A DNA stretch of 64,000 nt from Patescibacteria group bacterium (GCA_018825385.1 JAHJEX010000071.1:1547-65546), one strand, 5' to 3'; counted from the first letter of the stretch, positions 14,998-52,386 are shown. The notes: generated by a model not told the origin, from the letters alone. Numbers and translations: made by a program.

Positions 14998-14999
14998 AT

Positions 15000-18036: not shown

Positions 18037-18038
18037 AA

Positions 18039-20174: not shown

Positions 20175-20179
20175 CCTTA

Positions 20180-21804: not shown

Positions 21805-21893
21805 AAATTAATTTGGTCAATAAACGTACTATACTATTGTAGTATATATTATTAAAAGAATAAAGGAGGAAGAATAGTAAATATTTGCGAGAA

Positions 21894-21972
21894 ATCCCGC
21901 ATATGCGGGATGACGAAGCAATCCCGTTTCAACTCAAAACCTGTTCCGAATAAGGAGCGGGATTGCTTCGTC
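21894..21972 (-). promoter_or_regulatory. Structured leader with mutually exclusive hairpins upstream of PRTase gene 21130..21804; candidate attenuator, riboswitch-like element or terminator of 22026..22772
   Basis: A perfect palindrome atcccgcatatgcgggat lies at 21894-21911. It is directly followed by a 15-bp-stem hairpin, gacgaagcaatcccg (21912-21926) paired with cgggattgcttcgtc (21958-21972). The gggat/atccc segments allow alternative pairings. Confidence 0.3.
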
Positions 21973-22025
21973 ACTCCTATTTTAAAATAGTAGCTCCTCG
22001 CAATGGTTACTGCTATTTATCCATT

Positions 22026-24885: not shown

Positions 24886-25803
24886 TCATTCAGCAAGTGC
24901 TGCCAAGAAGATTTCATACTCTTCTCTAGTGAGACCGACTGTTCCCATCTCAACCCCCTCTGGCTTGAAGGAGCCGTGGTCGTCAGATCCACCGGTTACA
25001 ATAAAACCGCAGTCTGTAGCGATATTCAGGAGCTCATGGACCGTCGCATCATCATGCAAGGGATAATGGACTTCAATTCCATCCATCCCGAGATCTCTCC
25101 ACTCGTAGAGCTCCGCTTTTGACGGCATCGTCCTGGGACGTTTTTTAGCCGCCAAATGCGCTGCGACCGATTTTCCACCGGCCTGTCGAATCAACTCTAT
25201 AGATCGTGATAAGAGTATGGTCTTTTTGGGCGGGAGGGTGTTTGCATTGACCACCCGGTCATACGCTTTTCGGAAGGCGCGATAGCTCATCTGAAGCGGG
25301 TCAGGCAGACAACCAGCATTAACAAGCGTCATCTTCAAAGCAGCCTGAGTTACAAGGAGCTGAGTCAGATCAATCTCAGCAAGTCTCTCCCGTGGCACTC
25401 CGGCCGCCAAAGCAAAAACATCTTCAGGATCAATGTGGAGATCATGAACCCGGGCAATGTTTTTGCAGGCTTCTCGTATCCGATTAAGTCGAATACAAGA
25501 TATCCCCGCAAGCGCCTCACTTAACTCACGGCTGTCTGCATCGATGTTATAACCCAGTAGATGAATTTCATGTTCTCCAGCTTGGGACGAAATCTCTACT
25601 CCGGAATGGAAGATGAGGCCATGCTTTTTGGCAGTTGCTTCCGACTCCGCCACTCCTGCCATAGTATCGTGACTAAGAATTGTCAGAGCGCCGATCCCCC
25701 TATGCTTAGCCAGTAGGCAAATTTCCTCCGGACTACGAGAGGAATCATTGCCGGGGTAGTTCCGGTGAATATGCAGATCAGCAAAAATCTTTCGTTTCGA
25801 CAT
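24886..25803 (-). CDS. PHP-domain metal-dependent phosphoesterase
   Basis: The N-terminus reads FADLHIHRNYPGNDSSRSPEEICLLAKHRGIGALTILSHD. The C-terminal region reads GGSDDHG. GC is noticeably higher than the local average by eye. Confidence 0.6.
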   Translation of the reverse strand: MSKRKIFADLHIHRNYPGNDSSRSPEEICLLAKHRGIGALTILSHDTMAGVAESEATAKKHGLIFHSGVEISSQAGEHEIHLLGYNIDADSRELSEALAGISCIRLNRIREACKNIARVHDLHIDPEDVFALAAGVPRERLAEIDLTQLLVTQAALKMTLVNAGCLPDPLQMSYRAFRKAYDRVVNANTLPPKKTILLSRSIELIRQAGGKSVAAHLAAKKRPRTMPSKAELYEWRDLGMDGIEVHYPLHDDATVHELLNIATDCGFIVTGGSDDHGSFKPEGVEMGTVGLTREEYEIFLAALAE

Positions 25804-26083
25804 TACGATCCTCCTCTCGCAAACAGGGAAAAGTCAAAGGGCGAATGTCTCTTATGAGACACTGCACAATAGCAATCAATTGCTAGTTTGTCAATATCAT
25901 AACAGACCCTTTAATAAAAAAATCGGGATTATTAGCCCGCCTTTTATAATGATATCTGTAAATCTGAACTGTAACATAGGTGGCGAGTTTACTCGCCTAG
26001 ATATTTTGCCTTAGTCTATTGCATCAGGAAAACAACCTGTTCTCTCTAATAATCAGGAGAGCAAGCTCTCCACCTACTGGTTT

Positions 26084-27418
26084 TTATTTTCCTTGTTCAG
26101 GAATTGACAGTCTTACACCTTCATCTTTCACTTCCTGCCATGCATATTTTCCACTGGCCAAATCGCCATAAACCATACCCTGTACTTCAGCATGCCCTTT
26201 TTCTGCCAAAATGTTTTCAAGCTGTACTCCGAAACGAGCAGATTCTGCATCATCCAGACCCATCTTTTCTTTGAAAACGTGTTGAAGGAAGACGCTTAAA
26301 TAAGAGGCCGTAAATCCGTTTCTCTGGAAATCCGCCATTGTTTCCGGCTTATATTTATCTTGTAAAATCTCCTTTGCCAGTGTGCTGACTCTTTGATTAT
26401 TTTTAAGCTCCACCAATAGATCACCTTTTTCCGCTGCAACTCTCAAGGCCGCAATGGCTTTGTACTTGTCTTTCTGATGTACCGCCTCGACAAATATCTC
26501 TATAACTGGCCTTAGTCCTTCATTACTGACCTGTTCCAAGTTTGTTTCCTCTTTATGGATTCTGTCTCTGTCTTCTTCTGAACCTAAGAACTCTTCGATT
26601 AGTTTTGTTCTTTGTACTTCTGGATCTTTGGCAGGCACAGGCATAGGAACAGATTTAGTCAAAACTGGCTCCTCCTGATTCGGCTCTTCAAACATCACGT
26701 GATCAGTAGGAGTAACATTTAATGGAGTGGGAAAATTTGCATAATCGTATATTCTTATCACCTCTTTTAGAATTTCTTTTTCCTTTGGATCAAGGCCGGC
26801 AACTTTCTTACTGTGACTCATATAGTTAATCTCATCAAGTGGATTTTTCAATCCCGGCCGGTCAAAGAAACTGATAAAGTCTCTGATCCAGTTTTCTACG
26901 AGGGGATCTCTTTTATTGCCTCTCTCTGTTTCCAGCTGGTTATTACCTATCCTTTCTTTATTGTTCTGAATTCCTTTTAGCAATTTTGCCCTATCATCTC
27001 CCAATAAATCAAATGGAAATTTATGAAATACAAAATAAGTGTTCAAAACTTTTCTGACATCAATTTTCCATTCAATCGCCCTGACCAGGGAACTCTCTAG
27101 CAGGGCCTGCACCTGATCAGAAGTTCTGACCGGTATAGTAATAATTTCTCCGTAGAGCAGTAAGTCCTGATATTTTTTGTGGAGATCGGGAAAATCAGTT
27201 TCCAGCTCCCCGACAATCGGCGTGAGAGTATTTATAATTTCCACAGAGTCGCCCATCTCACAGAAGAATTCAGGATCCAGAAACGTAACAAAAAGCCGAT
27301 CAAATGTTTCCACCCGCCTTATGTCCCTTACATCAAGCTTCCGAATTTCCTCTAAACTCATCGGAAATATCCGGAGCTTCAGTATATCTTCTCTTTCTGG
27401 AATATTCGATAAATCCAT
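26084..27418 (-). CDS. Hypothetical cytoplasmic protein (444 aa), last gene of the giant-protein operon
   Basis: The ORF is co-oriented and 17 nt downstream of the VirB6-like gene. No motif was recognised. Confidence 0.4.
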   Translation of the reverse strand: MDLSNIPEREDILKLRIFPMSLEEIRKLDVRDIRRVETFDRLFVTFLDPEFFCEMGDSVEIINTLTPIVGELETDFPDLHKKYQDLLLYGEIITIPVRTSDQVQALLESSLVRAIEWKIDVRKVLNTYFVFHKFPFDLLGDDRAKLLKGIQNNKERIGNNQLETERGNKRDPLVENWIRDFISFFDRPGLKNPLDEINYMSHSKKVAGLDPKEKEILKEVIRIYDYANFPTPLNVTPTDHVMFEEPNQEEPVLTKSVPMPVPAKDPEVQRTKLIEEFLGSEEDRDRIHKEETNLEQVSNEGLRPVIEIFVEAVHQKDKYKAIAALRVAAEKGDLLVELKNNQRVSTLAKEILQDKYKPETMADFQRNGFTASYLSVFLQHVFKEKMGLDDAESARFGVQLENILAEKGHAEVQGMVYGDLASGKYAWQEVKDEGVRLSIPEQGK

Positions 27419-27435
27419 TGCAAAATATTAATTTA

Positions 27436-30400
27436 TTAGCTCTGTTCCCCTTTGCCCTTTTCTTCATCTACTGCTCTATCCGTTTTGCCTCCTCTTTCCT
27501 TATTTTCTCCTTTTTCCGCTGAAGCTCCGGTGCCAGACGGACTGCCGGCACTGCCTTTGGGTCTGTTTTCGGCTTTCATTGCCTTTAGTATCTTGCCCAT
27601 AATATGCAGTAATCGCTGTTGTGAAATAGGATCTTGTATTTGCCCTTCGCCCGCATTTTTCATACCACTCTTAAGATCTCCTAAAGTTTTTTCTAAACTA
27701 TCTCTTTTTCCGGGATCACTTATTTTCACAATAGAATCGCTCAATTTATTGACTACTCCACCAAAACTCTTCGTAAGATCGCTTAGGGATTCGACAGTAG
27801 CCATAGCACCGCGTTCTAACTCTCCCGAAATCTTGCCCAAAGCTTCTTCCATACCAGCCAGGTCCATTCCTACTGTGATATCAGAAATATTCTCTCCTAT
27901 CGCCTCCTCAATTGAACCCATATCAATATCCAGTCCTTTAACTGCTGCTACTTTAGCGTTTTTTTCTTCCACAACTTTATCTTGCGTCAGGGTATCAACT
28001 TGTTTACCGTCCTTCAGTTTCTGCCATACCGGTTTTTTATCGGCGCCGACACCTTTGCTCTTTCTATAGGTATGCCCGCCCATTTCAAATTCCTCTCCCG
28101 CTTCAATTTTCTTTGAAACATCAGAATCCATTTCTGTGGCCACCTTCTTGACATCCGGCACTTCAGCTTCCTTAACTTTCTTTTTAAGATTAATTGGTTC
28201 CCGTTTTTCTTTATTTGCTTTCTCATTTTCGTTATCCTGCGCAAGGCCCTCCCAGCCCTCGTCAATAGGAATGGCTCTGCCAACATCCTTTCTTTCACCT
28301 CTATGCGCCATATTCCAGACTGCTCGCATAATATTAGGGTTTTGATCATATAGTTTTTTCCAGTTTTCCAGTTTCTCCGGAGAAGTCGGCATACCATCAG
28401 CATCAAAAAATGCGTTCTCTTCCCCTATGCCGTTAATCGTCCCGGAAAGAATCTGAGGCACTCTGGTTTGGAGATGGTGGATTTCCGCTACCATCTGAGG
28501 GGTTAGTATTTCTGACAGCATTCTTTTCTGATATCCTGTCATATTTTCAGGATCAAGGTCATAGTTCCATTTCCCATCTTCATCTTTCACCTGGGATACG
28601 AAATTATGAGGCGCCATGTTTTGAATCAGTCCTCTAGTACCCTGCTTTCGCGCTTCACCTTTCACCTCTTCTATCTTTTGATCATCGCTCATCATATAAT
28701 ATTTACCGGTCTCAGGATTCAAGTTAGTTGTAACCTGCTCCCAATGACCAACTTTTCTGGCCCCCTGACTGAGGGCAAAAAGGGTGCTCAGCCGCGCCTG
28801 ATCAATGTCCGATGCGTCAGCGGCACTGTCTCTGGCCGTGTCTTCCACATGTGTTCTGTTTTGTGCCGCAATTGTCCTGGCTTGTTTACGGCCGGATTTT
28901 GTTTCCAGATCCAAATTATTTTCCTTGGCAATATCGTTCAAGTTTAGTTTCAGTCCTTTTCTCGCAGCGATAGCATTAGGATCAAATTTTTCTCTGTCTA
29001 ATCCCATATAGTGCATTGCAAATATTTTCTGTGTTTCTTCATTCATAACCCTTGATTGCTCAAAGCCAGTCATAACCACATTACCTTCCTCATCTTTTTT
29101 GTCCTCAAAACCCCACTCCTTGGCATCTTGTTCAGTCTTCACATAATGATCCATGAAATGGGTAAAAACATCATCCATATTGCCTTTTCCAGTGGCCATT
29201 TCCAAAATAGCCATCCGAGTATCCTCACCCTGCGTACCGCCCTGTTTCCAGCCTCGATCGGCAAATTCCATCATCTTTTCTTTGGCATCTGTAGACGAAC
29301 CCATTGCCTGATTAATATCAGATATACGCTGGTTAATGACTTTACGGCGCGCTTCTTCTGCTCTTGGAAATGCCGCTCCCTTTCTCTCTTCAGTTTTAGC
29401 AAATAAACCGTACCCTTTAAATGTGTTCTTCAGTCTGTCGCCCATGCCCGGCACCCATTCCTGCATAATCTTTTCCATCGCCTCTTCACCTTTACCTGCT
29501 GTTTTTGTATCCTCTATTTCTTTCAGCTTTCTTCCTCTTTCGCCCATACCCTTCCAGAAAGCCGGAGATACAATCGGGACTTTCTCCTGAATTTTTCGGC
29601 CAATTGCCCCGCGCGGTCTTTGGGTAACTCTCCAACCCACTGAAAAAGGTTTAGTAAATGCGCCAACACCCATTGATTTCAGCTTGCCGGGAAAACTACC
29701 AAGAGTTGAACCGCCCATTACACCCAACTGTTGGGTTAACATAATGCCGGTAATAAGTAAGGCAATCGTAATGATGTAGTTGAACATATTCTGAGTTGTC
29801 ATGATTGCTGTCGCACCCTTAGGTAGATCTGCCGATTTGCCATCGGTTTCTATAGCGCCAATAGTACCTCCCAGATCTCCACCGCCGCCGCCTTCCAGTT
29901 CAGAAAGATTAATAGGCATCCCGGCACTGGTAGAAATAATAGAAAGTGATAGCCATAGAAAAAATGCCAAGATTGGGCCGGAAATTAAATTTTTTCCCAA
30001 TGACTGCCACCACTGAGAAGCGTAACGCGATGTATTGGGCAATACAGAGGCAATAAATGCGACCGGGGAAAGAATGACCAGAATCCAAAGCATCAAAATT
30101 CTTGCAACAATAATTATCAACATAGCAATTATTACGGCAATTGCTACTACCAACATAGCATTTGCTAAAAAAATCGCTGCAAGCACAGAAAAGAATCCCT
30201 TAAGTCCATCCGTGTCCTGAGCAAAACTAGTCATTTGTGCCAAATTCAAACCTACTGTCAATACTATTGGAGCAGAATCTTTGAATGCGCCAACAAAAGT
30301 CAACATTATTACTTGCGCAGCGTCTATAAACATGCCGGTAATGGTTTTGCTGAAATTGATCAGCACTGCCATAATAATCATTTTAACCAGCAGACTGCGG

Positions 30401-30771
30401 GCATGATAAGACTGAATTTTCAAGATAGTGCCAAAGGCAATCACCATTAATGCAATAATAAACATCATATTGGAAAGATCTCTAACAATTGTCCAACCGA
30501 TGTGCACTGCTGGTGGTGCTTCTAAATTTACAAAATTATTGAAGCTAAATACGCCGACTAACTGTTCGATCAATATACCCAACAATGTTCCAAGCAACTT
30601 CAAAATCATACTGCCAATATCTCCTATCACTCCAATAAGTGCCTTGGAAAAACCCAAATCTGCTGCTTTTGTTACTCCCGGAAAAATCATTCCCACAAAA
30701 ACAACTACCCCCAACACACCAAGTAGGGGCAGAAATTTTTTCCTAAATCGTGATAAGTTCTTCCTAAACAT
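27436..30771 (-). CDS. Large integral membrane protein, TrbL/VirB6-like topology (signal peptide, ~6 TM helices, Gly-rich loop, ~750-aa charged hydrophilic tail)
   Basis: Signal peptide MFRKNLSRFRKKFLPLLGVLGVVVFVGMIFPGVTKA. Multiple long hydrophobic helices span residues 40-330. The tail is rich in K/E/D. Only the architecture is similar to VirB6/TrbL; no sequence motif supports it. Confidence 0.4.
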   Translation of the reverse strand: MFRKNLSRFRKKFLPLLGVLGVVVFVGMIFPGVTKAADLGFSKALIGVIGDIGSMILKLLGTLLGILIEQLVGVFSFNNFVNLEAPPAVHIGWTIVRDLSNMMFIIALMVIAFGTILKIQSYHARSLLVKMIIMAVLINFSKTITGMFIDAAQVIMLTFVGAFKDSAPIVLTVGLNLAQMTSFAQDTDGLKGFFSVLAAIFLANAMLVVAIAVIIAMLIIIVARILMLWILVILSPVAFIASVLPNTSRYASQWWQSLGKNLISGPILAFFLWLSLSIISTSAGMPINLSELEGGGGGDLGGTIGAIETDGKSADLPKGATAIMTTQNMFNYIITIALLITGIMLTQQLGVMGGSTLGSFPGKLKSMGVGAFTKPFSVGWRVTQRPRGAIGRKIQEKVPIVSPAFWKGMGERGRKLKEIEDTKTAGKGEEAMEKIMQEWVPGMGDRLKNTFKGYGLFAKTEERKGAAFPRAEEARRKVINQRISDINQAMGSSTDAKEKMMEFADRGWKQGGTQGEDTRMAILEMATGKGNMDDVFTHFMDHYVKTEQDAKEWGFEDKKDEEGNVVMTGFEQSRVMNEETQKIFAMHYMGLDREKFDPNAIAARKGLKLNLNDIAKENNLDLETKSGRKQARTIAAQNRTHVEDTARDSAADASDIDQARLSTLFALSQGARKVGHWEQVTTNLNPETGKYYMMSDDQKIEEVKGEARKQGTRGLIQNMAPHNFVSQVKDEDGKWNYDLDPENMTGYQKRMLSEILTPQMVAEIHHLQTRVPQILSGTINGIGEENAFFDADGMPTSPEKLENWKKLYDQNPNIMRAVWNMAHRGERKDVGRAIPIDEGWEGLAQDNENEKANKEKREPINLKKKVKEAEVPDVKKVATEMDSDVSKKIEAGEEFEMGGHTYRKSKGVGADKKPVWQKLKDGKQVDTLTQDKVVEEKNAKVAAVKGLDIDMGSIEEAIGENISDITVGMDLAGMEEALGKISGELERGAMATVESLSDLTKSFGGVVNKLSDSIVKISDPGKRDSLEKTLGDLKSGMKNAGEGQIQDPISQQRLLHIMGKILKAMKAENRPKGSAGSPSGTGASAEKGENKERGGKTDRAVDEEKGKGEQS

Positions 30772-30790
30772 ATTTCGGCTGTATATGAGT

Positions 30791-33700
30791 TTAGCTTGGA
30801 TAGACAGTAATTACTCCGTCAAACCCCTGATAGTCACGAACACCGATACTGCAATCTCGACTACCTGAATCGGTTTCCGGTTGGTCGTTACAGAATCCCC
30901 AGTTGTCGATCAACATTATTTCTATATTATAGTTTAGTATCCCCCCCGGAGCATCATAGGTGTGAGACATTAAGTGTGGCTGGCTTGGGTCAGATTTTGG
31001 CGCACCATTCCACATAATATGACTTGTGGAAGTATCGCCCCAATCCACAACTATATGCTTTAATGCTTCCTGTTCCGGATCAACAAAGCTATTGAAAGTT
31101 AAGGTAACTGATCCTCCACCAAATAATTCCACATCACCGGTTGCACCATTTACAAGTACATTATCAATCGTAGGCAGAATCCCGCATAGGTCAGTTTCTC
31201 CTGGTAATCCCGGCCAAGTCGGGCGTGGTCCCAAGCCTGCATTACAACTGTCCCCAGGGAGAGCACAATCTGTGTCATTAACACATGCTGCACCGGAAAT
31301 ATCACATTCCATATTGCAAAGTGGCATTGTCACGAAAGCATCATTCCAATTTTGCGCCCATACAGCTGTATTGGTTATATCCTGATAACTACCCGTACCA
31401 TCATCCCAGCGCCAAGCACCATAAATATAACCGAAAATTCTTTGCAATCTTTCTATCGCCCAGTCATCTCCGGTAGGATCAGTTGGTCCATCTCCTCTTC
31501 CTCTTACCTCCGATCCAACGCATGAACCGCCATTAATATCTATACAATCCTGATCAATTTCACACGCAACCGTTTGGGCATCACTGCAGAACCCAACACC
31601 CACGCATACACCGCGATCATCTGCCGTACCGCCGCAATCAGCGTCAGTTGAACATGGATACTGGACGCTACGATGCGCTGTATCATAATCACCGCCAAAA
31701 CAAACTTTTGGTACACAGTCACCATCACAACTATATGGCCTGCCTGATCTTTGATTGTTGAAAGCAGGTAGCGGATAATTATCAAAATTATCAACATACA
31801 GCGGATTTAAAAGTTGCTGATCCCCCATACTGTCCCAAGTTTGTCCGGGATCATCTCCCTGCCCCGCTACGATCGCACCGAATGGCGCAGAGTCCGAACT
31901 ATAAGTGTATAAAAGTTCGGGAATTACATAAGAGCTGGTATTAGCGGTCCGCTGAGCCCATGCCTTATCATCAGTTGGGCTTACAACTTTTGCGATTTCT
32001 TTGCACGAATCACGCAAATATATGTATCCCATTACCCACATTCCTCCGAAATTCGTGCTACCGTCGCTCATATGGACAAAATAGCTTTCTATCGTCTTAT
32101 CAACGGAGTCAAAATTAACTTTTACTTCAAAACAGTTCAGGTCTTGGCAATTGATTGACTCACCTGGATCTTTGTTCCAGCCACCCTGATCGCCTAAAAT
32201 ATGCCAGCCATTTTCGGCATTGGCCACCCAGGTATAGGCATTACTGGGCCAGTCACCATGCGACGATCTTTGCTGGACCCATTCGATCCGGTCAATTTCC
32301 CACTCGTGGTAGTTTACATCTTCACCAATTGCCGCGACTGTCCGGTTGATTCCGTTGCCACCGGTGCAGCTGACCCATCCGTAAAACCCGGCCGCCGCCC
32401 CTCCCGGAAGCATCTGCCGTCCGCCGCAGGATGCGACAGACCTTAACTGCGGTATATTTTCCAGAGACCCACAAGCATAGTCGCCACTACAACCTTGATT
32501 AATATAATTCCAAGGGATATCGCATTCCGCATTCAGCCAGTTAGTCTGTACCGGACGGCGATAACCATAAGCTTGTTCCACTAAACCTGTTCTCACATTG
32601 TTTTCACCGCAAAAATCCTGCGTATCTATATTGCCGGGGAGAGTGCGCGTCGTATCGTCAAAATTGCCACTTGCCTCCACACACATATATAGAGGCCTAC
32701 GGCCTTTGTAGCCGGCCGGCTCCACCGTGCCGAACACGCTGGATTCACCAGAAATTACATCAACCGGCCACCAAGTGATACACTTATTAGCATTGGTTGG
32801 ATCCGTTTCAATACAATACCCTTGCCAGCCGTTGAATTCTACCAGGTCACTATTGGTATATTGGCACTTTTCAGAGTCTTCACGCGGATAGGCGCGACAA
32901 GAACGCACTATATAGGCTTCATCGCCGTCTGTAGTAGAAAGGTTTGCCGCCGGCACTATTGTAAAACCAGCTGCTCCTGCCGGTCGCCAGGTGAAAATCA
33001 TTTGAGCATCACCCAAATTTTGGTAATATTCAACCATTATCGGATGCCAGCCAGCATCAAGGCCGAATAGGGTTACAGAATTGTTATTATCTCCATCATT
33101 CCAATCATCCAGAACAGGATTTGCCAGATCATCAATATAAAAACGTAATCCATCATTTGTATTGAATTGGAAACCATAGTTGCCGGCAGTTTCTAATAAG
33201 ATTTGCCCGGTCCAGCGTACCGCCACTTGCTCATCCGTTCCGGCTTGGTCATTGAGATGATTAGCCATCGCCGGAACAGAGTAGTCTAAGTTGTTACTAA
33301 CATATGTTCCTAAGTAACTACCAAAAACCCGTTCAAGTTCCGTAGTTAAACTGCTCTGCGGAATCAGATAGCTGTTTGGAATAGCTGTAATTCGGTTCCA
33401 GTCTGGATGGGCCATTCCTTCAACTACTGATGTAGCTGAGTTGTTTGTCCAAGCAATTGGCGATATTTCTCCGTCTCCATTAGCGTCCCATGCATACTCA
33501 ACGCAGAATGGGTTAGGTATTCCTCCTCCGCAATCAGAAGGATCCCATTGTCCGGTAACCCAGCCAAGTTGTAAGCCACCATATGCACCTTCTGCATTAT
33601 TAAACTCTATTTTTATTGGATGCCAACCTGCTGTGAAGTACTCGGAATACATAAATCCTAAAGTTGGAATATTACCCCAGGCGCTGACTATTTCTGCACC

Positions 33701-36700
33701 GGGTGATAAATCATCTACCCAGATTCTTACTCCATCATTTACATTGAAGAAAAGAGTATAAATTCCTGACGAGGGGAAATTTATACCACCTTCCCATCTT
33801 GCAGAACTTCCTTCAATTATGAGATCATTATTATTTGGTACAAAAGCCTGCATTTCTCCAGGAATAGTAACGAATCTATCCGCATTACCACAAAGACAGC
33901 AAATACTATCTGGTATACTACAATCTATTGCTGCTGGAGATTCGTCATAACATGCCACGCACGGCTCATACCAGTTAATCATTGGTACCTCGTATGGATT
34001 TGCAGCGCACGGCACCGATAGATTGGTATCTGTAAAACACTCCTCATTAAGACCGGGAACGCTGGTAACTGTAGGTTGGTACACATGTGTAAAATAATCA
34101 CCTCGAATACCGGGCGAATCAAAAGCCTTCACCGCCAGCGCCGGTTTCATGGAAACATTATCTAATGCGAATGAAATATTTCCGCCCATATTTCTGATTA
34201 GTAAAAAGGTCTGCGCATTTTCGTCCGGTAGGCCGGTAACTTCGACCGGTTCTAGCACCTGCTGTGTCCACCCCGTAGAACCGTTAAAATAACCCAGAAG
34301 ATTTTCACCAACAATATTTACACCATCAAACTGGGCCAGTGAAACAGCTATTTCTTCACTGCCTTCCTGAGGAAGGTATTCAAATCGAAAATCAAAGCTG
34401 GCAATATATTCAGTATTATTTAGAATATTTGATCCCAGATCTACCTTTACACCTAATCCAACAAACGAACAACTACCACCCCCGGTACATTCTGAACCTG
34501 CTAAGATACAAGTTGTTCCTTCATTATCAGATGCATCGTCACAAACTCCCAGCGCCCCAGCTTTATAAAGAAGATAGTTGTTCTCATCTAGTGCGGCATT
34601 GCCCAACGTCTCTTCACCTTCTACTACTATAATTTCACTATCAAGTGCAGGGAAAATTGGCGACCAGGACGGATCCTCATTTACATCTTTGCAGTTAGCA
34701 GTATCTGTTAATTCTTCATTTGGTATGCAATGAGCATCAACAATACAGGAATCACCTTTGTTCTCTTGCTCGTCATCACATACCATAAAGCCTTCTATTG
34801 CATCTGATTCAAAATCTCCAAATTGCACCAAATCTTTGGTTATTGCACCGCCCATTCCTACTTCAAACATTTCTGAATATGGATACAAGCCTTCTATAAT
34901 ATGACATTCTTCACCAAGAGGCCCCGCACAATCCGTAAGCTCCGTCGCTACTGTGCAGGAAACAGAATGATCGTCCTTACATCCATATTGAAGTCCGGCA
35001 CTGACAAATCCGGAAAGGTTTTGGAAATCGTCAAATGGATACGCTCCCGTATCACCGGTTACATTTGCTGGGGGAGTGGTTACCGTACCAGCACATAGAC
35101 CCCCCGGTCCAAGCTCATCACACAGACCTATTTCAAAACATACATCTTCTTTCGTCTTTCCATCACCATCCAAATCTAATTCATCATCAACTTCAAATGA
35201 TGTTTTACAATAAAGCCATTCATCACATACCCTGTCTCTTCTTACTTTAAGAACAGTGTTGGAATCATTATAAGGACTACTATTCGCTGTATATAGTGGA
35301 TTACATGAACCACCGAGACATTCAGCTCCCGTAGCAGTACAAGGATCTCCTGGGTTTGTGCCACCAGAACATGTGCCATATCTGCCCAGCACCGGCGGTC
35401 CGAATTCAGGATTCTCTATACAAATGCCCGTTGGCGGACTGCAATCAACATCAGTTTCACACTCTTGACCATAAAAAGTTACGTCACTAGGATCCAGATT
35501 ACAGTATTTTTTCAGGCCATCCGGACTGAGGTCGGCCGAATAATTAATTGACTGTGACGTATCGTTAAATAATTTACATCCTTTTTCTTCGTTGACTACG
35601 CCATTGCAACTGGTTGCATCAACCGTTCTGTCTATATAGTAATAGGTTTCACATCCGGGTAATCCTCCTACACTTTCTGCGCAATTCTCATCAAATAGCA
35701 CTCCGTTTTCATATGGACAGTTTGGTTGACAGCCAACCGGATCCACTGGATCACGATATGCTTCACATCCGTCAAATTCTGCTTCACAAACACCCACCCA
35801 TGGTATGCATCGGCTGCCATTCGTGCATTCAACTGGATTATCAGGGTTGCAGACAGTTCCTGCTGGCAATGCCGGGCTTCCTCCTTCACAAACAAAAGCA
35901 GGAATAGCAGGATTAGGCGGAGTGTCAGTCTTGTCGCAAAGTTCTTCTGTTCCGACAATATACCAGTCAAGAACATATGATCCTAATAGCTGCTTATACT
36001 CGCATAAACGACCGGCTGGATCTTTGAAAAATGTTTTTCCGGTACTGCCCGAGAATCCAAACTCTTCACATCCGACCTCTGAGTGTGCACACCATATATC
36101 AGAATACTGATCGGCATTATCTTTTAGATACACCGTATCATATCCGGTTATGTTGTTACGCTCATCAAATACAGGCTCACCCAATTCCGCACAGCCTTTA
36201 TCGCTAGATGAACAACGCACTTCCTCTTTATTAATAAACCTGACTGTCTCGTCTGGTGGAATGGTAATGAAGCTCTGAGTCTGTAGCGGATCACCATAGT
36301 CTTCTGAGAAAGGACTAGAAGTATTCATTGTATCTATGAGCGCTTCACATCCTGCTACATTTTCTTCACATAATTTGGAAAATGATTTTAGGTAATGGAT
36401 ATTTCCGTCACTATCTGAATACGCTTCACAATTTTCAGATCCATAGCATGTTCTAAATGAATCGCGCACTAGATACTGGCTATTTGTTGTTTCTACCAGT
36501 TCAATGTTATCAAGATATATCTGATTTCCAACACTTAAAATTTGTAGACTGCTTGGTAGTCCGGTCCAACCTGCCGGATCAGATATATCTATAGTTACCG
36601 GACCAAGTCTAAACTCTTGCCATTCCGGCACAAGAGTAACTGTAGGTGGAAGTGTTAAAACGGTCTGATCGGCAAACCAAGTATTGCCATTTGCACCCGC

Positions 36701-39700
36701 TACTGTATCAAATCTGACAGTTATCGTTTCTGAAGCTGCGGGAGTCATTCCCCAGAATCTTAATTCATATGTTTTGCCGTCTTCTACTGTCACTGTTTTA
36801 TCAATATCAGTATTAACATTAGAAGCCAATGAGTGCCCACCCGCTATTACTGAATTAGTGCTTACTGTTGCTGGTGTCCAACCCTGAGTAGTACCGTCTT
36901 CAAAATCATCAAAAAATATTTGTCGATAGTTGTAGCCAGAATTTCCCAGATATTCCCTACAGCCCATAAATTCTTGCGGACAAGCTCTACTTTCACTTGG
37001 AATACCATAATAAATGTCTTCATCTATACTGTTTCTTTCAGGGTGACAATCATCTGAAACAGTGATGGTTTGTGATTTATATCTATAAAATACATTTAAG
37101 CTTGCATCAAAGAATTGTGTGCAATCAGGGTTGGTTCCATATTCATTTGTTCCTGCAGGACCACAGTCAATTACAGTATTCGATCCATCTTCACAATCTA
37201 AAGGAAGTGTTGGACCCACTTCTAAATGAGTACAAGGTGCATATGGTAGGCCTATATCACTCTGTTTCAGTCTAAATGCTCTCAACTGATAACCGGCTAC
37301 GGCATCCCCTTCCCAAGCATAGTAAGGAGCAGTATTTATTTCACCTGGAAGAACACATTGTTTTAGATATGTATAATATTCTTTACCTTCGCCACCATCT
37401 GCTACTTCATCTAGATTTGTGTATTCTTCACACCCGACATATGCCGCAGAACATTGTAGACCGGTATTTGGAATGAAAGATATGCTAGGAAAGCAGTATC
37501 CAGTACCGCAATCCAGGCTCGTTAAACATGCTTCTCCCTCATTCCCACCGCCATGACAATAATTGCCAGAACGCTCTATGTGATTTGGATTAGGAACAAT
37601 GGTAGTTAATGGTACTTCCTCAAATGCCTTGCACCCTACATCCTGGCTTGGACACTGATCAGAAGGTGTAATCTGTGCCGGTATTTGATCTCCGCCAGCA
37701 AGCGGGTCATACCACTGACAACCTACATCATCCGGATCACATGTATCTCTTTCTCCGGTTAGATATATCCTGTTTACAGTTCCATAATCAGCATATTGGC
37801 CGGCGCTACTTGATTCTTCTAACATGACCGCGTCATACAACATGTCACAGACACTATCTGCATAAAAACGGACATCAAGCGTTTGTTCAGAAGCAACTAT
37901 CGTGTCAGGAAGGTTTACAGTGACCTCATACCTTTGCCATTGATCACTTACGTTATCAATAGCTGTTGAAGAAGATTCTATGAACCCAGTATTTCCAACA
38001 TCTACCTGACCATCATTGTTGCAAGCAGTTGGATCAAGAGACATGGCATAAACTGAAAATGTAAATGATCTTCCCCTGATAGGAGATCCCGTATTAAATG
38101 AAGACATTATTCCTTCACTGAGTGGTGCGCCAGGAAGCATGCTAAGTGCTGTTATGCCAGAGAAAGGTATAACGCCTGGGGTATCTGGGGTAACGGCTTC
38201 TATAGAAGTACCCCCTATCGGCACCCATGCATCAAATGTGTTAGAAACCAGATTGTCCGGATCGCCTGTGTAGTATTCAAAGCTAGCATTGTTGATTAAA
38301 TTTGTGCCGTGGGTTGTTCTTATGTATTCATTACATCCGGCTACATCAGCAGTACAGGTTTCGGCACCGGCAGTAAGATGTGACATCCAATCTCTATAAT
38401 CCGGCCCAGGAGTATAAACAAGCCCCCATGGATCAAAGAGTCCATCTGACCACATGCTATAATCATCATTATTTACATCATCCCAATAACATTCCCACCT
38501 GTCATCAACCTCATTGTATTCTTTACAATACCATTGGCAGCCGACATTATCAGCGGAACATCCGTTGAAGTCGAGCGTGTCCCTTAGATAGGAATCCGGT
38601 TGTCCTTGACTGTCAATATAAGTTGTACATGTATTGTAATAGTCAGGACACGAATCTCCTCCGAAGCGCCAGATAGGATCCTCTTTTGTGCAGTAACCGT
38701 ATTGCTGACAGTTACCCGCCTCGTCTTCTGATAAACATGATTGATCGTCAACGCAGGAAGTGTTGCGTTGAATTTGACGTACTTTCGGAGTTTCACTTTT
38801 TCCATCGGCATCAAGATATTCATCAAAGAGGAAAGTCTCGCCATAACCACTATTTACACACTGGCTTGCCGGTGCTTTCAAAACCCAGTCCGGATCTATC
38901 AACTGATAGTATTGTGAAGATTCATCATCAAATTCCCTTATCAGATCATTAAGACTTCTAGCCCCGCCACCATATTCTCTGATATATGAAGCAGCCAGTT
39001 CCCAACTGACAGGTACCACTCTATGCCTTCTAAGAAGAACCAGGCTGCGGTAAGGATACCCTTCTGTATAATTCAACTGGGAACCACCATCTCCATAGCC
39101 AAACGGCTTGTTTCCGTTTATATATCCCCGGTCAATCGCCTCTTCTAAACGGAGTTGCTGTTCCACTGCTGTACGGAAACTGGCATCAATAACACAGTTC
39201 TCCGGCTCTGCAAAACTTGTAGGACATGAAGAAAGGGTATTTAAAATATCCACTGATCCACCCGCACTAAGGTTGGGCTGATTGAACGAAGCAAATTTTG
39301 CTTCCGCTGCAGCAATGCTCGAGGTTCTTCCAAATTGTCCCCCGTATTGCGAAGAAGTACTGTCTGCCGCCGGATTCAAACCTTTAACAAGAATGAATTC
39401 CATGTACTTTTTAACCAGTGTATTGGTAAACACGCCAACCATGTCAGCTATAATACTGCCTGTATTTGTTTCTTCTGCCGTAGTTGTTTGGGATAAAGCA
39501 AAATTTTGGGTTGCCTCAATTGTAGCCGCGGGCGTCTTTGTTCGACCGGTAATTGCACTCACTAAATCCTTAAAGCCTTTTTCTTGTGATGCAGCTTCTG
39601 CTGTTTCAGCTTCAAATTTTTTTTCTACTGCCCCTTTATAAACTGTTAAATATTGGCCTACGTTAGTTTGCTCATCGCCCCACATATTAGGAAATTCTTT

Positions 39701-40315
39701 TAGGATTGTCCTAGATAGCTGGGCGGGATCAATTCCTTTTATAGAAAGTCCTCCATCAAATGTTACCTGAGAAAAGATTCCATCATTGAATCTATCCAGA
39801 ATTGAAGTTACAGTACATTTTGCTTGGCGAGGCTCTTCCAGTCCTAAATCTAAAGCTATTCCATACTGGATATTGACTTTGATAGCCGGGTCAATATCGC
39901 ACAAACTCCACCCCCATCCATCGGTTGTGAGAGTATCTAAAAAATCACCAACTGCTGCATTACCGGCATCTCTCACTGACTCCTTAAAATCTTCGGTATT
40001 GAACAAAGGTTCTTGCCCTGCGCCTCCGCTGGCAATTTTTACCGCCGCGTCATAAGCAATTTGTTGAGTAAAGACTCTCAAAGCATTCTTGTAAGCAATA
40101 TCCCCCGAAGTCTTTACTACCGACGTTACAGCCTCTGACAACGCACGAGGGATGTCTTGAATTGTGGTAGAAAAAGTAATATCACCAAAACCAAACAAAG
40201 CATTCGCTGGTTTTGGCATGAAGGTGACAATTTGTACAAAAGCAACAACTAAAACAAAAACACCAATTACTGTTCTTTTAATGTGGTGTTTTGATTTTTT
40301 TTGAGGGCCTTGCAT
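30791..40315 (-). CDS. Giant (3174 aa) signal-anchored, Cys-rich surface protein with two PA14 domains (adhesin-like)
   Basis: N-terminal anchor KRTVIGVFVLVVAFVQIVTF. PA14-like segments: LFFNVNDGVRIWVDDLS...WHPIKIEFNNAEGAYGGLQLGW (about 33500-33800) and FQFNTNDGLRFYIDDLA...WHPIMVEYYQNLGDAQMIFTW (about 32950-33250). There are hundreds of Cys residues in CxxC/CxxxC contexts. Confidence 0.7.
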   Translation of the reverse strand: MQGPQKKSKHHIKRTVIGVFVLVVAFVQIVTFMPKPANALFGFGDITFSTTIQDIPRALSEAVTSVVKTSGDIAYKNALRVFTQQIAYDAAVKIASGGAGQEPLFNTEDFKESVRDAGNAAVGDFLDTLTTDGWGWSLCDIDPAIKVNIQYGIALDLGLEEPRQAKCTVTSILDRFNDGIFSQVTFDGGLSIKGIDPAQLSRTILKEFPNMWGDEQTNVGQYLTVYKGAVEKKFEAETAEAASQEKGFKDLVSAITGRTKTPAATIEATQNFALSQTTTAEETNTGSIIADMVGVFTNTLVKKYMEFILVKGLNPAADSTSSQYGGQFGRTSSIAAAEAKFASFNQPNLSAGGSVDILNTLSSCPTSFAEPENCVIDASFRTAVEQQLRLEEAIDRGYINGNKPFGYGDGGSQLNYTEGYPYRSLVLLRRHRVVPVSWELAASYIREYGGGARSLNDLIREFDDESSQYYQLIDPDWVLKAPASQCVNSGYGETFLFDEYLDADGKSETPKVRQIQRNTSCVDDQSCLSEDEAGNCQQYGYCTKEDPIWRFGGDSCPDYYNTCTTYIDSQGQPDSYLRDTLDFNGCSADNVGCQWYCKEYNEVDDRWECYWDDVNNDDYSMWSDGLFDPWGLVYTPGPDYRDWMSHLTAGAETCTADVAGCNEYIRTTHGTNLINNASFEYYTGDPDNLVSNTFDAWVPIGGTSIEAVTPDTPGVIPFSGITALSMLPGAPLSEGIMSSFNTGSPIRGRSFTFSVYAMSLDPTACNNDGQVDVGNTGFIESSSTAIDNVSDQWQRYEVTVNLPDTIVASEQTLDVRFYADSVCDMLYDAVMLEESSSAGQYADYGTVNRIYLTGERDTCDPDDVGCQWYDPLAGGDQIPAQITPSDQCPSQDVGCKAFEEVPLTTIVPNPNHIERSGNYCHGGGNEGEACLTSLDCGTGYCFPSISFIPNTGLQCSAAYVGCEEYTNLDEVADGGEGKEYYTYLKQCVLPGEINTAPYYAWEGDAVAGYQLRAFRLKQSDIGLPYAPCTHLEVGPTLPLDCEDGSNTVIDCGPAGTNEYGTNPDCTQFFDASLNVFYRYKSQTITVSDDCHPERNSIDEDIYYGIPSESRACPQEFMGCREYLGNSGYNYRQIFFDDFEDGTTQGWTPATVSTNSVIAGGHSLASNVNTDIDKTVTVEDGKTYELRFWGMTPAASETITVRFDTVAGANGNTWFADQTVLTLPPTVTLVPEWQEFRLGPVTIDISDPAGWTGLPSSLQILSVGNQIYLDNIELVETTNSQYLVRDSFRTCYGSENCEAYSDSDGNIHYLKSFSKLCEENVAGCEALIDTMNTSSPFSEDYGDPLQTQSFITIPPDETVRFINKEEVRCSSSDKGCAELGEPVFDERNNITGYDTVYLKDNADQYSDIWCAHSEVGCEEFGFSGSTGKTFFKDPAGRLCEYKQLLGSYVLDWYIVGTEELCDKTDTPPNPAIPAFVCEGGSPALPAGTVCNPDNPVECTNGSRCIPWVGVCEAEFDGCEAYRDPVDPVGCQPNCPYENGVLFDENCAESVGGLPGCETYYYIDRTVDATSCNGVVNEEKGCKLFNDTSQSINYSADLSPDGLKKYCNLDPSDVTFYGQECETDVDCSPPTGICIENPEFGPPVLGRYGTCSGGTNPGDPCTATGAECLGGSCNPLYTANSSPYNDSNTVLKVRRDRVCDEWLYCKTSFEVDDELDLDGDGKTKEDVCFEIGLCDELGPGGLCAGTVTTPPANVTGDTGAYPFDDFQNLSGFVSAGLQYGCKDDHSVSCTVATELTDCAGPLGEECHIIEGLYPYSEMFEVGMGGAITKDLVQFGDFESDAIEGFMVCDDEQENKGDSCIVDAHCIPNEELTDTANCKDVNEDPSWSPIFPALDSEIIVVEGEETLGNAALDENNYLLYKAGALGVCDDASDNEGTTCILAGSECTGGGSCSFVGLGVKVDLGSNILNNTEYIASFDFRFEYLPQEGSEEIAVSLAQFDGVNIVGENLLGYFNGSTGWTQQVLEPVEVTGLPDENAQTFLLIRNMGGNISFALDNVSMKPALAVKAFDSPGIRGDYFTHVYQPTVTSVPGLNEECFTDTNLSVPCAANPYEVPMINWYEPCVACYDESPAAIDCSIPDSICCLCGNADRFVTIPGEMQAFVPNNNDLIIEGSSARWEGGINFPSSGIYTLFFNVNDGVRIWVDDLSPGAEIVSAWGNIPTLGFMYSEYFTAGWHPIKIEFNNAEGAYGGLQLGWVTGQWDPSDCGGGIPNPFCVEYAWDANGDGEISPIAWTNNSATSVVEGMAHPDWNRITAIPNSYLIPQSSLTTELERVFGSYLGTYVSNNLDYSVPAMANHLNDQAGTDEQVAVRWTGQILLETAGNYGFQFNTNDGLRFYIDDLANPVLDDWNDGDNNNSVTLFGLDAGWHPIMVEYYQNLGDAQMIFTWRPAGAAGFTIVPAANLSTTDGDEAYIVRSCRAYPREDSEKCQYTNSDLVEFNGWQGYCIETDPTNANKCITWWPVDVISGESSVFGTVEPAGYKGRRPLYMCVEASGNFDDTTRTLPGNIDTQDFCGENNVRTGLVEQAYGYRRPVQTNWLNAECDIPWNYINQGCSGDYACGSLENIPQLRSVASCGGRQMLPGGAAAGFYGWVSCTGGNGINRTVAAIGEDVNYHEWEIDRIEWVQQRSSHGDWPSNAYTWVANAENGWHILGDQGGWNKDPGESINCQDLNCFEVKVNFDSVDKTIESYFVHMSDGSTNFGGMWVMGYIYLRDSCKEIAKVVSPTDDKAWAQRTANTSSYVIPELLYTYSSDSAPFGAIVAGQGDDPGQTWDSMGDQQLLNPLYVDNFDNYPLPAFNNQRSGRPYSCDGDCVPKVCFGGDYDTAHRSVQYPCSTDADCGGTADDRGVCVGVGFCSDAQTVACEIDQDCIDINGGSCVGSEVRGRGDGPTDPTGDDWAIERLQRIFGYIYGAWRWDDGTGSYQDITNTAVWAQNWNDAFVTMPLCNMECDISGAACVNDTDCALPGDSCNAGLGPRPTWPGLPGETDLCGILPTIDNVLVNGATGDVELFGGGSVTLTFNSFVDPEQEALKHIVVDWGDTSTSHIMWNGAPKSDPSQPHLMSHTYDAPGGILNYNIEIMLIDNWGFCNDQPETDSGSRDCSIGVRDYQGFDGVITVYPS

Positions 40316-40350
40316 ATTGCCTTAAACGAAATAATTAAACACTAAAATGC

Positions 40351-41181
40351 TTAGTATAATTCTTCTTGTAAAGCCTGGTAATACAGAAGCTCCAACGTTT
40401 CATCATCTACCTGGCTTAGATCAGCCTCGCTAACTCCACTGCCAATTAGCAGTTGCCTGATTTGTGCCGCATCAAGTTGTTGCAGAGCATCAAGCGTAAT
40501 TTCCTGACCTGCTGAATCCGCCGGTGCAAGACTATCTGTCTGATTTGTAAGTTCTTGAGGGTCAATGCCTGTTTCCACCACTGTATCTTCATACACTGTC
40601 CTAAGCGTCTCATCATCCATAGCGTCAACAATATTTGCCGGCGCTCCCAATTGTTTCAAAGTATCTCTTAGCTCTCCTGCAGAAAGTTCATTCGTAGTAG
40701 TGGTAGTGACAACAGTATTTGTTAAATCTGACGCAGGTTCAGTTGCTACCGTTGTAATTACACAAACCTCGCCCTTTGGACAATTGGGGTCGTTTCCGCT
40801 GTCCAGCTCGTCTTTATCTGAAATATTGTCGCTGTCTGAGTCAGCTACATACGGACTGGTTCCATATATGTAAAGTTCATCATAGTCATTAAGCCCGTCC
40901 TGATCTGTATCCTTCTCTTTGAGAAAAACCAGCTGGTCATATTCCGAATCACTATTTGTCAGTGCATTTTGTGTATCTTCTCCATCGGAACCGACAAGAG
41001 GAGAACCTATTGTACCGGAAATTTGGAATACTCCCAGTACTATTGCGCTGAAACCAACAAACAGAAGTGCTCCAAAAATGATATTCTGCCTTTTTTGGGA
41101 GTCTAATTGTGATTTTTTGTTTTGATTTTTTTGGGGTGAGACTACATCCATAACCCTTCTATAGAGTGTAAAATAGCTCAA
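40351..41181 (-). CDS. Membrane-anchored protein with thrombospondin-type-3-like Ca-binding Asp repeats
   Basis: TM segment IIFGALLFVGFSAIVLGVF. Repeats DTDQDGLNDYDE and DSDSDNISDKDELDSGNDPNCP. Confidence 0.45.
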   Translation of the reverse strand: MSYFTLYRRVMDVVSPQKNQNKKSQLDSQKRQNIIFGALLFVGFSAIVLGVFQISGTIGSPLVGSDGEDTQNALTNSDSEYDQLVFLKEKDTDQDGLNDYDELYIYGTSPYVADSDSDNISDKDELDSGNDPNCPKGEVCVITTVATEPASDLTNTVVTTTTTNELSAGELRDTLKQLGAPANIVDAMDDETLRTVYEDTVVETGIDPQELTNQTDSLAPADSAGQEITLDALQQLDAAQIRQLLIGSGVSEADLSQVDDETLELLYYQALQEELY

Positions 41182-41264
41182 AAATAATCGTCCCCATTAT
41201 ATCATAATTACCCCAAAGTGTCAAACTGATAGTGCTTTCAATTGCCGATTTTTGTCTTGCTGTG

Positions 41265-42140
41265 CTACTTTTCAAGAATTTTCTTATTATTTAGAGTAAA
41301 AGTCAACTTTTTCCAGCTATTTACGGCAATGTCTTGCGGTCTGAATTCGGGTTTAATACCGCTTTCTACTAATATTTTCTTTATTTTCTGAGTTTCAACA
41401 TGCAAACTGTTCGCAAGATTGTTATGAATCTGTTTACGCTTTGCAGAAAACCCCGCCTTTACTACTTGAAAAAACTGTTTCTCACTAAAATCATAGCCAT
41501 CCGCCTTATTTCTCTCTTTAATTTGCTTGCCTGTTCTAATATTACCTATTTTGACTATAGCACTATCAACTTTTGGCTCAGGCCAAAAGCATGTCCTTGA
41601 AACCCCATGGATAATTTGGGGTTTTCCGTAAAATTGGACTGACACTGCTAAGAGACTAAGTTTCCCTACACTGGCCACCACTCTTTCTGCCACCTCTTTC
41701 TGCATCAGTAATGTCATTGCACAAGGTTTAGGTTCTTGCTCAAGAAACTTTCTAAGTATAAACGAAGTTATATTGTACGGGAGATTCGCAACTATTTTAT
41801 ATTCCTGGCCGCTTACTAGTTTGCTAATATCTAATTTAAGAATGTCCTGATGAATTATTTCGATCAAAGGGAAGGCAGTCCCCAGTTTATTTAACTCGGG
41901 CATAAATCTTTTCTCTAATTCTACTGCCCATACTTTTTTTGCTTTTTCTGCAAGTCTTTTTGTCAGCGGGCCAAAGCCAGCTCCAATCTCAAGCACATTA
42001 TCACTTTTTTTCAGTTGCGCTGCATTAATGATTATGTCCAATGGTTCTTCTTCAATTAAAAAATTCTGCCCGCTTTTGCGTTGAGGGTGGATCCCATATT
42101 TTTTTGTAAGATATTTTGTTTCGTCCTGAAGATTATTCAA
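41265..42140 (-). CDS. rsmA: 16S rRNA (adenine1518/1519-N6)-dimethyltransferase
   Basis: SGQNFLIEEEPLDIIINAAQL...VLEIGAGFGPLTKRLAE is read from the translation. The length is 291 aa. Confidence 0.8.
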   Translation of the reverse strand: MNNLQDETKYLTKKYGIHPQRKSGQNFLIEEEPLDIIINAAQLKKSDNVLEIGAGFGPLTKRLAEKAKKVWAVELEKRFMPELNKLGTAFPLIEIIHQDILKLDISKLVSGQEYKIVANLPYNITSFILRKFLEQEPKPCAMTLLMQKEVAERVVASVGKLSLLAVSVQFYGKPQIIHGVSRTCFWPEPKVDSAIVKIGNIRTGKQIKERNKADGYDFSEKQFFQVVKAGFSAKRKQIHNNLANSLHVETQKIKKILVESGIKPEFRPQDIAVNSWKKLTFTLNNKKILEK

Positions 42141-42155
42141 AATATGATTTCATTT

Positions 42156-43322: not shown

Positions 43323-43328
43323 TTTTGT

Positions 43329-43940: not shown

Positions 43941-43946
43941 GAATAT

Positions 43947-51578: not shown

Positions 51579-51596
51579 AGTTTTGGGTTTTTATAC

Positions 51597-52376: not shown

Positions 52377-52386
52377 TTTTTGCTAA

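Follow-up and report, generated by a model that had tools for sequence, protein, structure and literature searches.

A four-gene operon of a Patescibacteria bacterium encoding a cysteine-rich giant and an extended VirB6/TrbL-like protein, probably one half of a type IV secretion system

A stretch of 64,000 nucleotides (nt) from a Patescibacteria group bacterium (GCA_018825385.1, JAHJEX010000071.1:1547-65546; the whole stretch is called the window below) carries four open reading frames (ORFs) head to tail on its minus strand, at 26084..41181. They encode a small membrane protein (gene 1), a cysteine-rich giant (gene 2), a predicted extended VirB6/TrbL-like protein (gene 3) and a helical partner (gene 4). 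Judged by the gene order over 83 related loci, the operon is probably the surface-protein and membrane-channel half of the known type IV secretion system (T4SS) of Patescibacteria, which is chromosomal and MPF-FATA-like (PMC12102498). An initial annotation, made from the sequence alone, had proposed a host-attachment or contact-dependent apparatus, a proposal that corresponds to this published secretion system (PMC12102498, PMC10633639).

Organization of the operon and of related loci

The genes and their flanking signals are as follows (aa, amino acids).

40351..41181, minus strand: gene 1, ORF of 276 aa
30791..40315, minus strand: gene 2 (the giant), ORF of 3174 aa
27436..30771, minus strand: gene 3, ORF of 1111 aa
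26084..27418, minus strand: gene 4, ORF of 444 aa
41196..41224, minus strand: promoter-like site of the sigma-70 type, TTGACA-17-TATAAT with an extended TG, just 5' of gene 1 (a consensus match only)
26056..26071, minus strand: terminator-like GC hairpin, 13 nt past the gene 4 stop, with a weak T tail

All four ORFs lie where the initial annotation had placed them, co-oriented and tightly spaced, with intergenic gaps of 35, 19 and 17 nt. These short gaps, and the presence of just one strong promoter-like site at one end and of the hairpin at the other, suggest that the four genes behave as a unit. The promoter-like site is the sole 12/12 consensus match within 25500..42500, and the 19-nt gap between the giant and gene 3 holds no promoter-like or terminator-like signal of note. 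Beyond the hairpin there is a 280-nt gap and a separate promoter-like site (25866..25894), then the next gene. Both flanks are of a housekeeping kind, with KsgA, two MFS transporters, Sua5 and leucyl-tRNA synthetase (LeuRS) upstream, and a PHP-domain protein, an APH-like kinase and a run of phosphoribosyltransferases downstream.

A one-genome-per-species scan found relatives of the N-terminal domain (N-domain) of gene 3 in at least 531 genomes, and 80 loci were fetched. Counts of loci given here and below come from tblastn and iterated local hidden Markov models (HMMs) over 83 non-duplicate Patescibacteria loci. The usual order in these 83 loci is the TSP3-type protein (gene 1 family), the giant, VirB6, the 444-aa family (gene 4), PrgI/VirB3, TrsD, VirB4 and a pilin. 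The Nomurabacteria locus L003, for example, contains giants, TrbL, proteins of 467, 99 and 445 aa, PrgI, a TraC-like protein, an ATPase, a 192-aa protein and T4SS_pilin; its TraC-like protein is the 'TrsD' of the literature, and its DUF87/TraG-type ATPase is VirB4. A giant-family ORF lies upstream of VirB6 in 49 of 56 loci (an ORF of at least 1400 aa in 46 of 56), and in 64 of 72 the ORF that directly follows VirB6 belongs to the 444-aa family, with a median gap of 12 nt. VirB4 follows within 10 kb downstream in 42 of 57 loci, after the '445', PrgI and TrsD families. It is this conserved order that identifies the operon as one probable half of the Patescibacteria T4SS.

The VirB6/TrbL-like protein

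Gene 3 falls into two parts.

29572..30771, minus strand: polytopic VirB6/TrbL-like N-domain, aa 1-400 (hydropathy, Pfam matches of the family, model)
27436..29571, minus strand: charged tail of 690 aa, predicted to be cytoplasmic (composition)

Hydropathy indicates a signal-like helix at the N-terminus of the protein and about seven hydrophobic helices in its first 352 residues, the segments lying within aa 11-352; a loop at aa ~286-327 is rich in Gly. The tail contains 15% K+R, 18% D+E and no Cys. The signal, the Gly-rich loop and the charged tail agree with the architecture described in the initial annotation, which had put the helices at ~6 and the tail at 750 aa.

Clear homologues of gene 3 number in the hundreds, all of them in Patescibacteria. 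An alignment of 27 N-domains (A1), with homologues 34-77% identical to that of the window, shows invariant motifs that include GW..RD..N, NFSK, QV.MLTFV, SP.A and GP..AFF.WL. Eight of the 27 members match Pfam TrbL (PF04610) at E <= 0.01, the best at 3.1e-7. PF04610 is also precomputed on the homologues P0019, P0056 and P0095, and one homologue is named 'type IV secretion system protein'. The match of the window N-domain itself is weak, and is colinear over profile positions 6-182 of 215. An AlphaFold model of the N-domain, built on A1, is all-helical (predicted local distance difference test score, pLDDT, 71.5; predicted template-modelling score, pTM, 0.60), with long helices at 41-75, 87-116, 121-163, 193-233, 248-284 and 326-358. 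When this model was compared with known structures, as the initial annotation had advised for VirB6, the five best PDB matches were all TrwI/VirB6 chains of R388 (probability 0.97-1.00), the rest having low probability. A search of PDB sequences with the N-domain family profile returned no VirB6, which was found by fold comparison only.

The original VirB6/TrbL proposal is thus upheld by the TrbL matches within the family, by TrwI/VirB6 as the top five matches of the model and, for the family though not in the window, by the nearby VirB4 in most loci. We accept gene 3 as a predicted VirB6/TrbL protein at the level of the family; for the window protein the evidence is transitive and structural. 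The two weaknesses named in advance, a lack of any similarity to VirB6/TrbL and a PA14 assignment in the giant without profile support, were both examined, and neither came true. A plasmid link of TrbL was also looked for, and tblastn of the TrbL-positive homologue P0095 against 72,556 plasmids gave no match.

The 120 homologues listed all measure 649-1891 aa (median 970), and a long hydrophilic tail is therefore a trait of the family. No Pfam or PDB match was found for the tail of the window protein, which can be aligned only to a subset of homologues; its class occurs in 13 of 57 loci, and at least two unrelated tail classes exist among close relatives. Relative to locus L088, the N-domain is 79% identical, the giant 62% and the 444-aa protein 44%, and the tail is not alignable; the comparison with L001 and L005 gives 70% identity for the N-domain and 30-34% for the tail. 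The parts predicted to be cytoplasmic, the tail and the 444-aa partner, evolve fastest, faster than the giant, which is predicted to be extracellular.

The cysteine-rich giant

Four regions were delimited in the giant.

38756..40198, minus strand: conserved N-terminal domain, aa 40-520, nearly Cys-free (exhaustive search; no Pfam match)
36656..36919, minus strand: CBM_4_9 (PF02018) module, aa 1133-1220 (Pfam, E 3.7e-8)
32957..33805, minus strand: tandem PA14 (PF07691), aa ~2171-2253 and ~2355-2453 (Pfam and PDB matches)
30866..32968, minus strand: conserved C-terminal region, aa ~2450-3150 (tblastn coverage map over 51 distant loci)

The protein starts with a hydrophobic helix (aa 11-37) that is a signal or an anchor, and no hydrophobic segment was found at its C-terminus. 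It contains 126 Cys (3.97%, against a median of 0.87% for the long ORFs of the window), well short of the 'hundreds of cysteines' first reported. They are arranged in short repeated motifs, C-x6-C (as C-x4-[VMAKD]-G-C-x2-[YFL]) and C-x5-C of the CxTDxDC type. The EGF-like stretches of the initial annotation had to be rejected, since no EGF family was detected.

The CBM_4_9 module scores 34.3 bits, above the curated cut-off of 25.9, and a second CBM-like stretch at aa 672-807 is marginal (E 0.2). The PA14 domains had been recognized from the start, and both Pfam profile and PDB searches confirm that there are two: the Pfam match extends over two stretches (E 1.8e-18, 67.2 bits against a cut-off of 24), the copies are each significant when searched as separate segments (E 4.5e-15 and 2.5e-10), and the second matches solved PA14 proteins (6qdi, E 7e-11; RsgI3, 6qe7, E 2.5e-9). 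The C-terminal region received no Pfam or PDB assignment; its family HMM matches 58 loci. Two further candidates were discarded: a PKD-like fold in the last ~100 aa, which had no Pfam or PDB backing, and Ntox22 (E 0.002), which is below the cut-off, lies in a Cys-rich stretch and was treated as spurious.

The family to which the giant belongs is visible only by exhaustive search, a word-index search with its N-terminal domain having given 2 matches. At E <= 1e-3 the exhaustive search matched 1207 representative clusters (50% identity), which is a minimum size for the family, and at the stricter E <= 1e-10 it matched 1058. The domain invariably stands at the N-terminus, the proteins being mostly 2500-3900 aa long, and it is present in 40 of the fetched loci. 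Dozens of invariant Cys are common to fourteen distant members, which carry CBM_4_9 in all 14 cases, VWA in three, dockerin in two and PA14 in one; with three others, CBM_4_9 is kept in 17/17 of the other giants scanned (14/14 and 3/3). On the tblastn coverage map, aa ~50-1800 and ~2450-3150 are conserved over the 51 distant loci; aa ~2050-2450, which hold the PA14 pair, occur only in the clade of the window and are missing from the 51 more distant loci. From this distribution, the PA14 pair is a clade-specific cassette inserted in a conserved scaffold.

The initial annotation had taken the giant's domain composition for an undescribed type of adhesin. The PA14 pair is indeed unusual, although the protein as a whole belongs to a very large conserved family. 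The literature searched contained no account of the giant family, nor of genes 1 and 4 as its constant partners, nor of a locus split in the way described below.

The calcium-loop protein and the helical partner

Gene 1 encodes a single-pass membrane protein with one hydrophobic segment (aa 31-59), an acidic ectodomain and helical repeats in its C-terminal part. Two Asp-rich loops of the thrombospondin type 3 (TSP3), Ca-binding kind, DTDQDGLNDYDE and DSDSDNISDKDE, follow the pattern DxDxDGxxDxxE and are kept in the family HMM. The anchor and the Asp repeats noted initially are therefore both visible, the repeats as conserved loops, but the Pfam score stays below the threshold (TSP3_bac, PF18884: 16.1 bits, E 0.01, against a curated cut-off of 25); in the orthologue of locus L001, TSP3 is listed as a faint match. 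The true start is more likely ATG 41151 (266 aa) than TTG 41181, because the -10 box ends only ~15 nt before the TTG. The gene 1 family was detected in 24 of 56 loci, immediately 5' of giants (a lower bound, the giant filling the 10-kb flank), and three distant loci, selected independently, show it in the same place (E 1e-43 to 1e-58).

The 444-aa protein of gene 4 has no hydrophobic segment, which is consistent with its original description as cytoplasmic. Searches of Pfam, NCBIfam and PDB sequences returned nothing. Its AlphaFold2 model is an all-alpha helical repeat (pLDDT 65.9) that matched only generic helical-repeat proteins in the PDB (E >= 0.97), and no fold family was assigned.

A split locus, and alternative readings

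Housekeeping genes, not the ATPase half of the secretion system, follow gene 4 in the window, in L004 (an ENA contig near-identical to the window), and in all close relatives (L001, L005-L008 and L088). HMMs of the VirB4, TrsD, PrgI and '445' families, run against the six frames of the window, gave no E below 0.24. A match of the small '192' family to the ORF at 50661..51590 (E 2e-4) was rejected, as it covers no more than a transmembrane helix and a linker rich in Asn. The break between gene 4 and the ATPase genes is common to the whole clade and recurs in other lineages (15 of 57 loci). The locus can thus be split into two modules, and the position of the break, after gene 4, suggests that the four genes form a unit. 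The window type of gene 3 tail is over-represented among split loci: of the 13 loci with this tail 8 are split, versus 7 of the other 44, a comparison not corrected for phylogeny. The best explanation is that the ATPase half has been separated in this clade and must lie elsewhere in the genome.

The same facts could be read as signs of a self-contained adhesin operon, in which a VirB6-like protein has been co-opted as platform, exporter or anchor and works free of VirB4, at least in this clade. The recurrent break, the strong promoter-like site that the module retains, the lack of T4SS ATPase genes in the window and the enrichment of the window-type tail in split loci, with the phylogenetic caveat just given, would all fit. 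We nevertheless regard it as unlikely. In most lineages the four families are contiguous and co-oriented with PrgI, TrsD and VirB4, and we know of no function of VirB6 outside a T4SS. Moreover, a separated ATPase half has parallels, since dispersed T4SS genes are known in some genomes, for example in Rickettsia (PMC12102498).

The giant might also be a general polysaccharide-binding envelope protein, serving nutrient capture, an S-layer-like coat or generic adhesion, which stands beside VirB6 through conserved gene order. For three distant giants taken from the exhaustive search, the neighbourhood consists of ComM, an RsmI-like methylase, a LysM-M23 peptidase, LeuRS, Sua5, KsgA, the gene 1 family and the giant, as in the window; the synteny of LeuRS, Sua5, KsgA, the TSP3-type protein and the giant thus reaches as far as distant relatives. 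In addition, CBM_4_9 and PA14 are generic glycan-binding modules, and giant surface proteins are common in the candidate phyla radiation (CPR) irrespective of a T4SS (PMC8080830). Set against this are the 19-nt gap between the giant and VirB6, devoid of notable promoter or terminator signals, the retention of the giant with VirB6 and the 444-aa gene when the locus was split, and the giant-family gene upstream in 49/56 of the VirB6-anchored loci; this reading, too, appears improbable.

The G+C content of the operon (0.41-0.46, versus 0.34-0.38 in much of the window), the missing ATPase half and an IS200-like gene 9 kb away could point to the decayed remains of an integrated conjugative element that has lost part of its transfer genes by deletion. 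However, G+C is likewise raised at 10-12 kb (the fn3/FG-GAP protein) and 22-26 kb of the window, so the rise is not specific to the operon. The four ORFs are intact, including an uninterrupted frame of 9.5 kb, the same chromosomal neighbourhood is found in many species, and Pfam scans of the main ORFs of the window (at least 150 aa) revealed no relaxase, coupling protein (T4CP) or integrase. With intact frames, a conserved position and no mobility genes, such a remnant is very hard to credit. Recent horizontal transfer of the operon was rejected as well, because its chromosomal position is conserved.

Assignment of the operon to the Patescibacteria T4SS remains the reading that we prefer, and several points weigh against it. 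VirB4, TrsD, PrgI and the pilin were not found in the 64-kb window. The N-domain of the window protein matches TrbL with only 8.4 bits (E 2.2; curated cut-off 25.9), and the structural matches to TrwI are modest (E 4e-3, TM-score up to 0.48). The T4SS cluster of S. epibionticum has no 3000-aa giant. The housekeeping genes LeuRS, Sua5 and KsgA are syntenic with the giant in distant lineages; gene order is therefore conserved beyond the T4SS genes, which makes adjacency a weaker argument for function. Finally, the N-terminal helix of the giant may be either a signal cleaved at ANA|LF or a membrane anchor.

Proposed mechanism

Gene structure, homology, domain content, synteny and family size were observed; on homology, composition and synteny we base a proposed model of oligomeric state, topology, glycan binding, contact among the four proteins and cooperation with VirB4. 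If TrwI/VirB6 of R388 is a guide, copies of the seven-helix N-domain of gene 3 would assemble within the cytoplasmic membrane into the base of a translocation channel. The 690-aa tail of gene 3 would serve, probably together with the helical 444-aa protein, as a docking platform for ATPases or substrates on the cytoplasmic side; this placement of the tail is predicted from the positive-inside rule and from the odd count of helices that remains once the signal is cleaved. The giant would be exported via its N-terminal signal, braced by dozens of disulfides, and would project from the cell, where it may bind polysaccharide of the host envelope through CBM_4_9 and the PA14 pair. The conserved CBM could give a general hold and the variable cassette specificity, and binding would keep the secretion apparatus in contact with the host. 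Gene 1, presumed to bind Ca and a constant companion of the giant, would probably aid its anchoring or assembly in a Ca-dependent manner. The energising half would consist of PrgI/VirB3, TrsD, VirB4 and pilins, encoded directly downstream in most lineages.

We infer, then, that the giant is a host-glycan-binding surface component that works with the VirB6 platform. A wider proposal, which we offer tentatively, is that the giant family may be the missing equivalent of a surface adhesin or stalk tip: a conserved, disulfide-braced CBM scaffold docked by its conserved N- or C-terminal domain on the extended VirB6, in which swappable lectin cassettes (the PA14 pair here, VWA or dockerin elsewhere) set the host range, the four genes being a separable contact module that may be encoded away from the ATPase module.

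Neighbouring genes

The LeuRS gene (45111..48122, minus strand) encodes 1003 aa. Between the editing domain (aa 224-404) and the remaining synthetase and anticodon-binding matches of the C-terminal part, aa 449-623 form an alpha/beta-hydrolase domain (Ser_hydrolase, E 3.6e-18; Abhydrolase_1, E 1.7e-11). The syntenic LeuRS proteins of three distant relatives measure 769-909 aa and match no hydrolase family. Between LeuRS and KsgA, two MFS transporter genes (42156..45110, minus strand) flank Sua5; they are missing from the syntenic loci L085-L087 and are therefore insertions in the lineage of the window. Divergent from the operon and 7 kb upstream of it, a LysM-LysM-Peptidase_M23 protein is encoded on the plus strand (48482..49771), and L085-L087 have one in the same relative position. 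Among the VirB1-like proteins of the T4SS survey are some that carry exactly LysM and M23 as extra domains (PMC12102498); the protein could be a wall-opening partner, or merely conserved synteny. Further on, at 50658..53544 (minus strand), there are three consecutive membrane-anchored proteins of 306, 259 and 385 aa, with a helix at the N-terminus and a linker rich in Asn/Thr; a PsbP-like domain (E 1.8e-6) is present in at least the last of them, and two have no Pfam match.

Downstream of the operon, a nucleotide-salvage-like cluster (17347..22772, minus strand) comprises four phosphoribosyltransferase-domain paralogues, a phosphoribosyl pyrophosphate (PRPP) synthetase, a LOG/lysine-decarboxylase-like protein and an NAD(P)HX dehydratase; it is kept beside the module in L004 and L088. 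Seven paralogues (675..6649, 8120..9010 and 13522..16562, minus strand), six of 482-520 aa and one of 296 aa, are recognisable only by a C-terminal mobile domain of PEP-utilising enzymes (72 aa), the N-terminal ~420 aa having no Pfam match. In the sister locus L001, too, a gene with the PEP-utilizers match lies downstream of the VirB6 module. In the window, an IS200/Y1-transposase-like gene (PF01797, E 4e-12; 16565..17131, minus strand) separates the seven paralogues from the phosphoribosyltransferase cluster. About 13 kb downstream of the operon, at 10946..12607 (minus strand), is the gene for a surface protein of 553 aa with fn3 and FG-GAP domains, whose counterpart in L001 (18798..20965) is followed by an N_methyl (type IV pilin-like) gene.

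Comparison with known systems

The closest described counterpart is the T4SS of S. epibionticum, which is essential for epibiotic growth in this species, the only one tested so far, and lacks a relaxase (PMC10633639). Like its cluster SEML1_0006-0019, the operon is chromosomal, of monoderm MPF-FATA ancestry and without a relaxase. Gene 3 resembles SEML1_0011 and SEML1_0013, the VirB6-like proteins of 998 and 1088 aa with helical-repeat tails (PMC10633639), and, as in other Patescibacteria T4SS, PrgI, TrsD, VirB4 and a VirB2-like pilin directly follow in related loci. It differs from the Saccharibacteria cluster in that the ATPase half is not adjacent, and in that the module includes a lectin-bearing giant of 3174 aa and a TSP3 membrane protein. 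A 2025 survey (Quinonero-Coronel et al.) that used profiles of known T4SS families detected 'no adhesins', and this HMM-based work did not report the giant or the TSP3 protein (PMC12102498).

With TrwI/VirB6 of R388 (7o3v, 8rt9, 8rtd) and Pfam TrbL, gene 3 shares a polytopic helical membrane domain. Identity to TrwI is only 12-16%, however, and gene 3 is three times longer through its C-terminal tail; unlike in R388, its host is monoderm and no VirB5 partner is known. Extended VirB6 proteins are defined by five or more hydrophobic helices and large hydrophilic domains (PMC12857230), a description that suits the seven hydrophobic helices and the 690-aa hydrophilic C-terminal domain of gene 3. 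A difference lies in its tail, which has no detectable similarity outside Patescibacteria.

The giant can be likened to PrgB of pCF10 in proposed role only, as a large surface protein encoded with a monoderm T4SS and concerned with cell-cell contact (PMC12102498). It is ~2.5 times larger, disulfide-rich and lectin-based (CBM_4_9, PA14), and has no sequence relationship to PrgB; neither a PrgB-related Pfam family nor a recognisable cell-wall sorting (LPXTG) signal was found in it. The closest solved relatives of its second PA14 domain are those of the clostridial anti-sigma-I factor RsgI3 (6qe7, 6qdi), which is a transmembrane anti-sigma factor, whereas the giant stands in a secretion-system context. 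The tandem PA14 domains of RsgI3 bind plant polysaccharide. The giant membrane proteins of the CPR predator Vampirococcus lugosii, likened here by description only, are also surface proteins of several thousand residues with adhesion-type domains in a reduced genome, and no T4SS link has been described for them (PMC8080830).

Published work already covers the Patescibacteria T4SS, its VirB6 homologues and the extended VirB6 proteins, and the present operon extends a known system. The survey counted 480 VirB6 against 2474 VirB4 (PMC12102498); many VirB6 homologues, the window protein among them, escape standard profiles, which may explain this difference. Neither a cargo nor a mode of host engagement has been described for the Patescibacteria T4SS (PMC10633639, PMC11665869). 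The giant family offers a concrete, testable candidate for the host-contact component of this essential, functionally opaque secretion system, and its lineage-specific lectin insertions are a natural place to look for host specificity.

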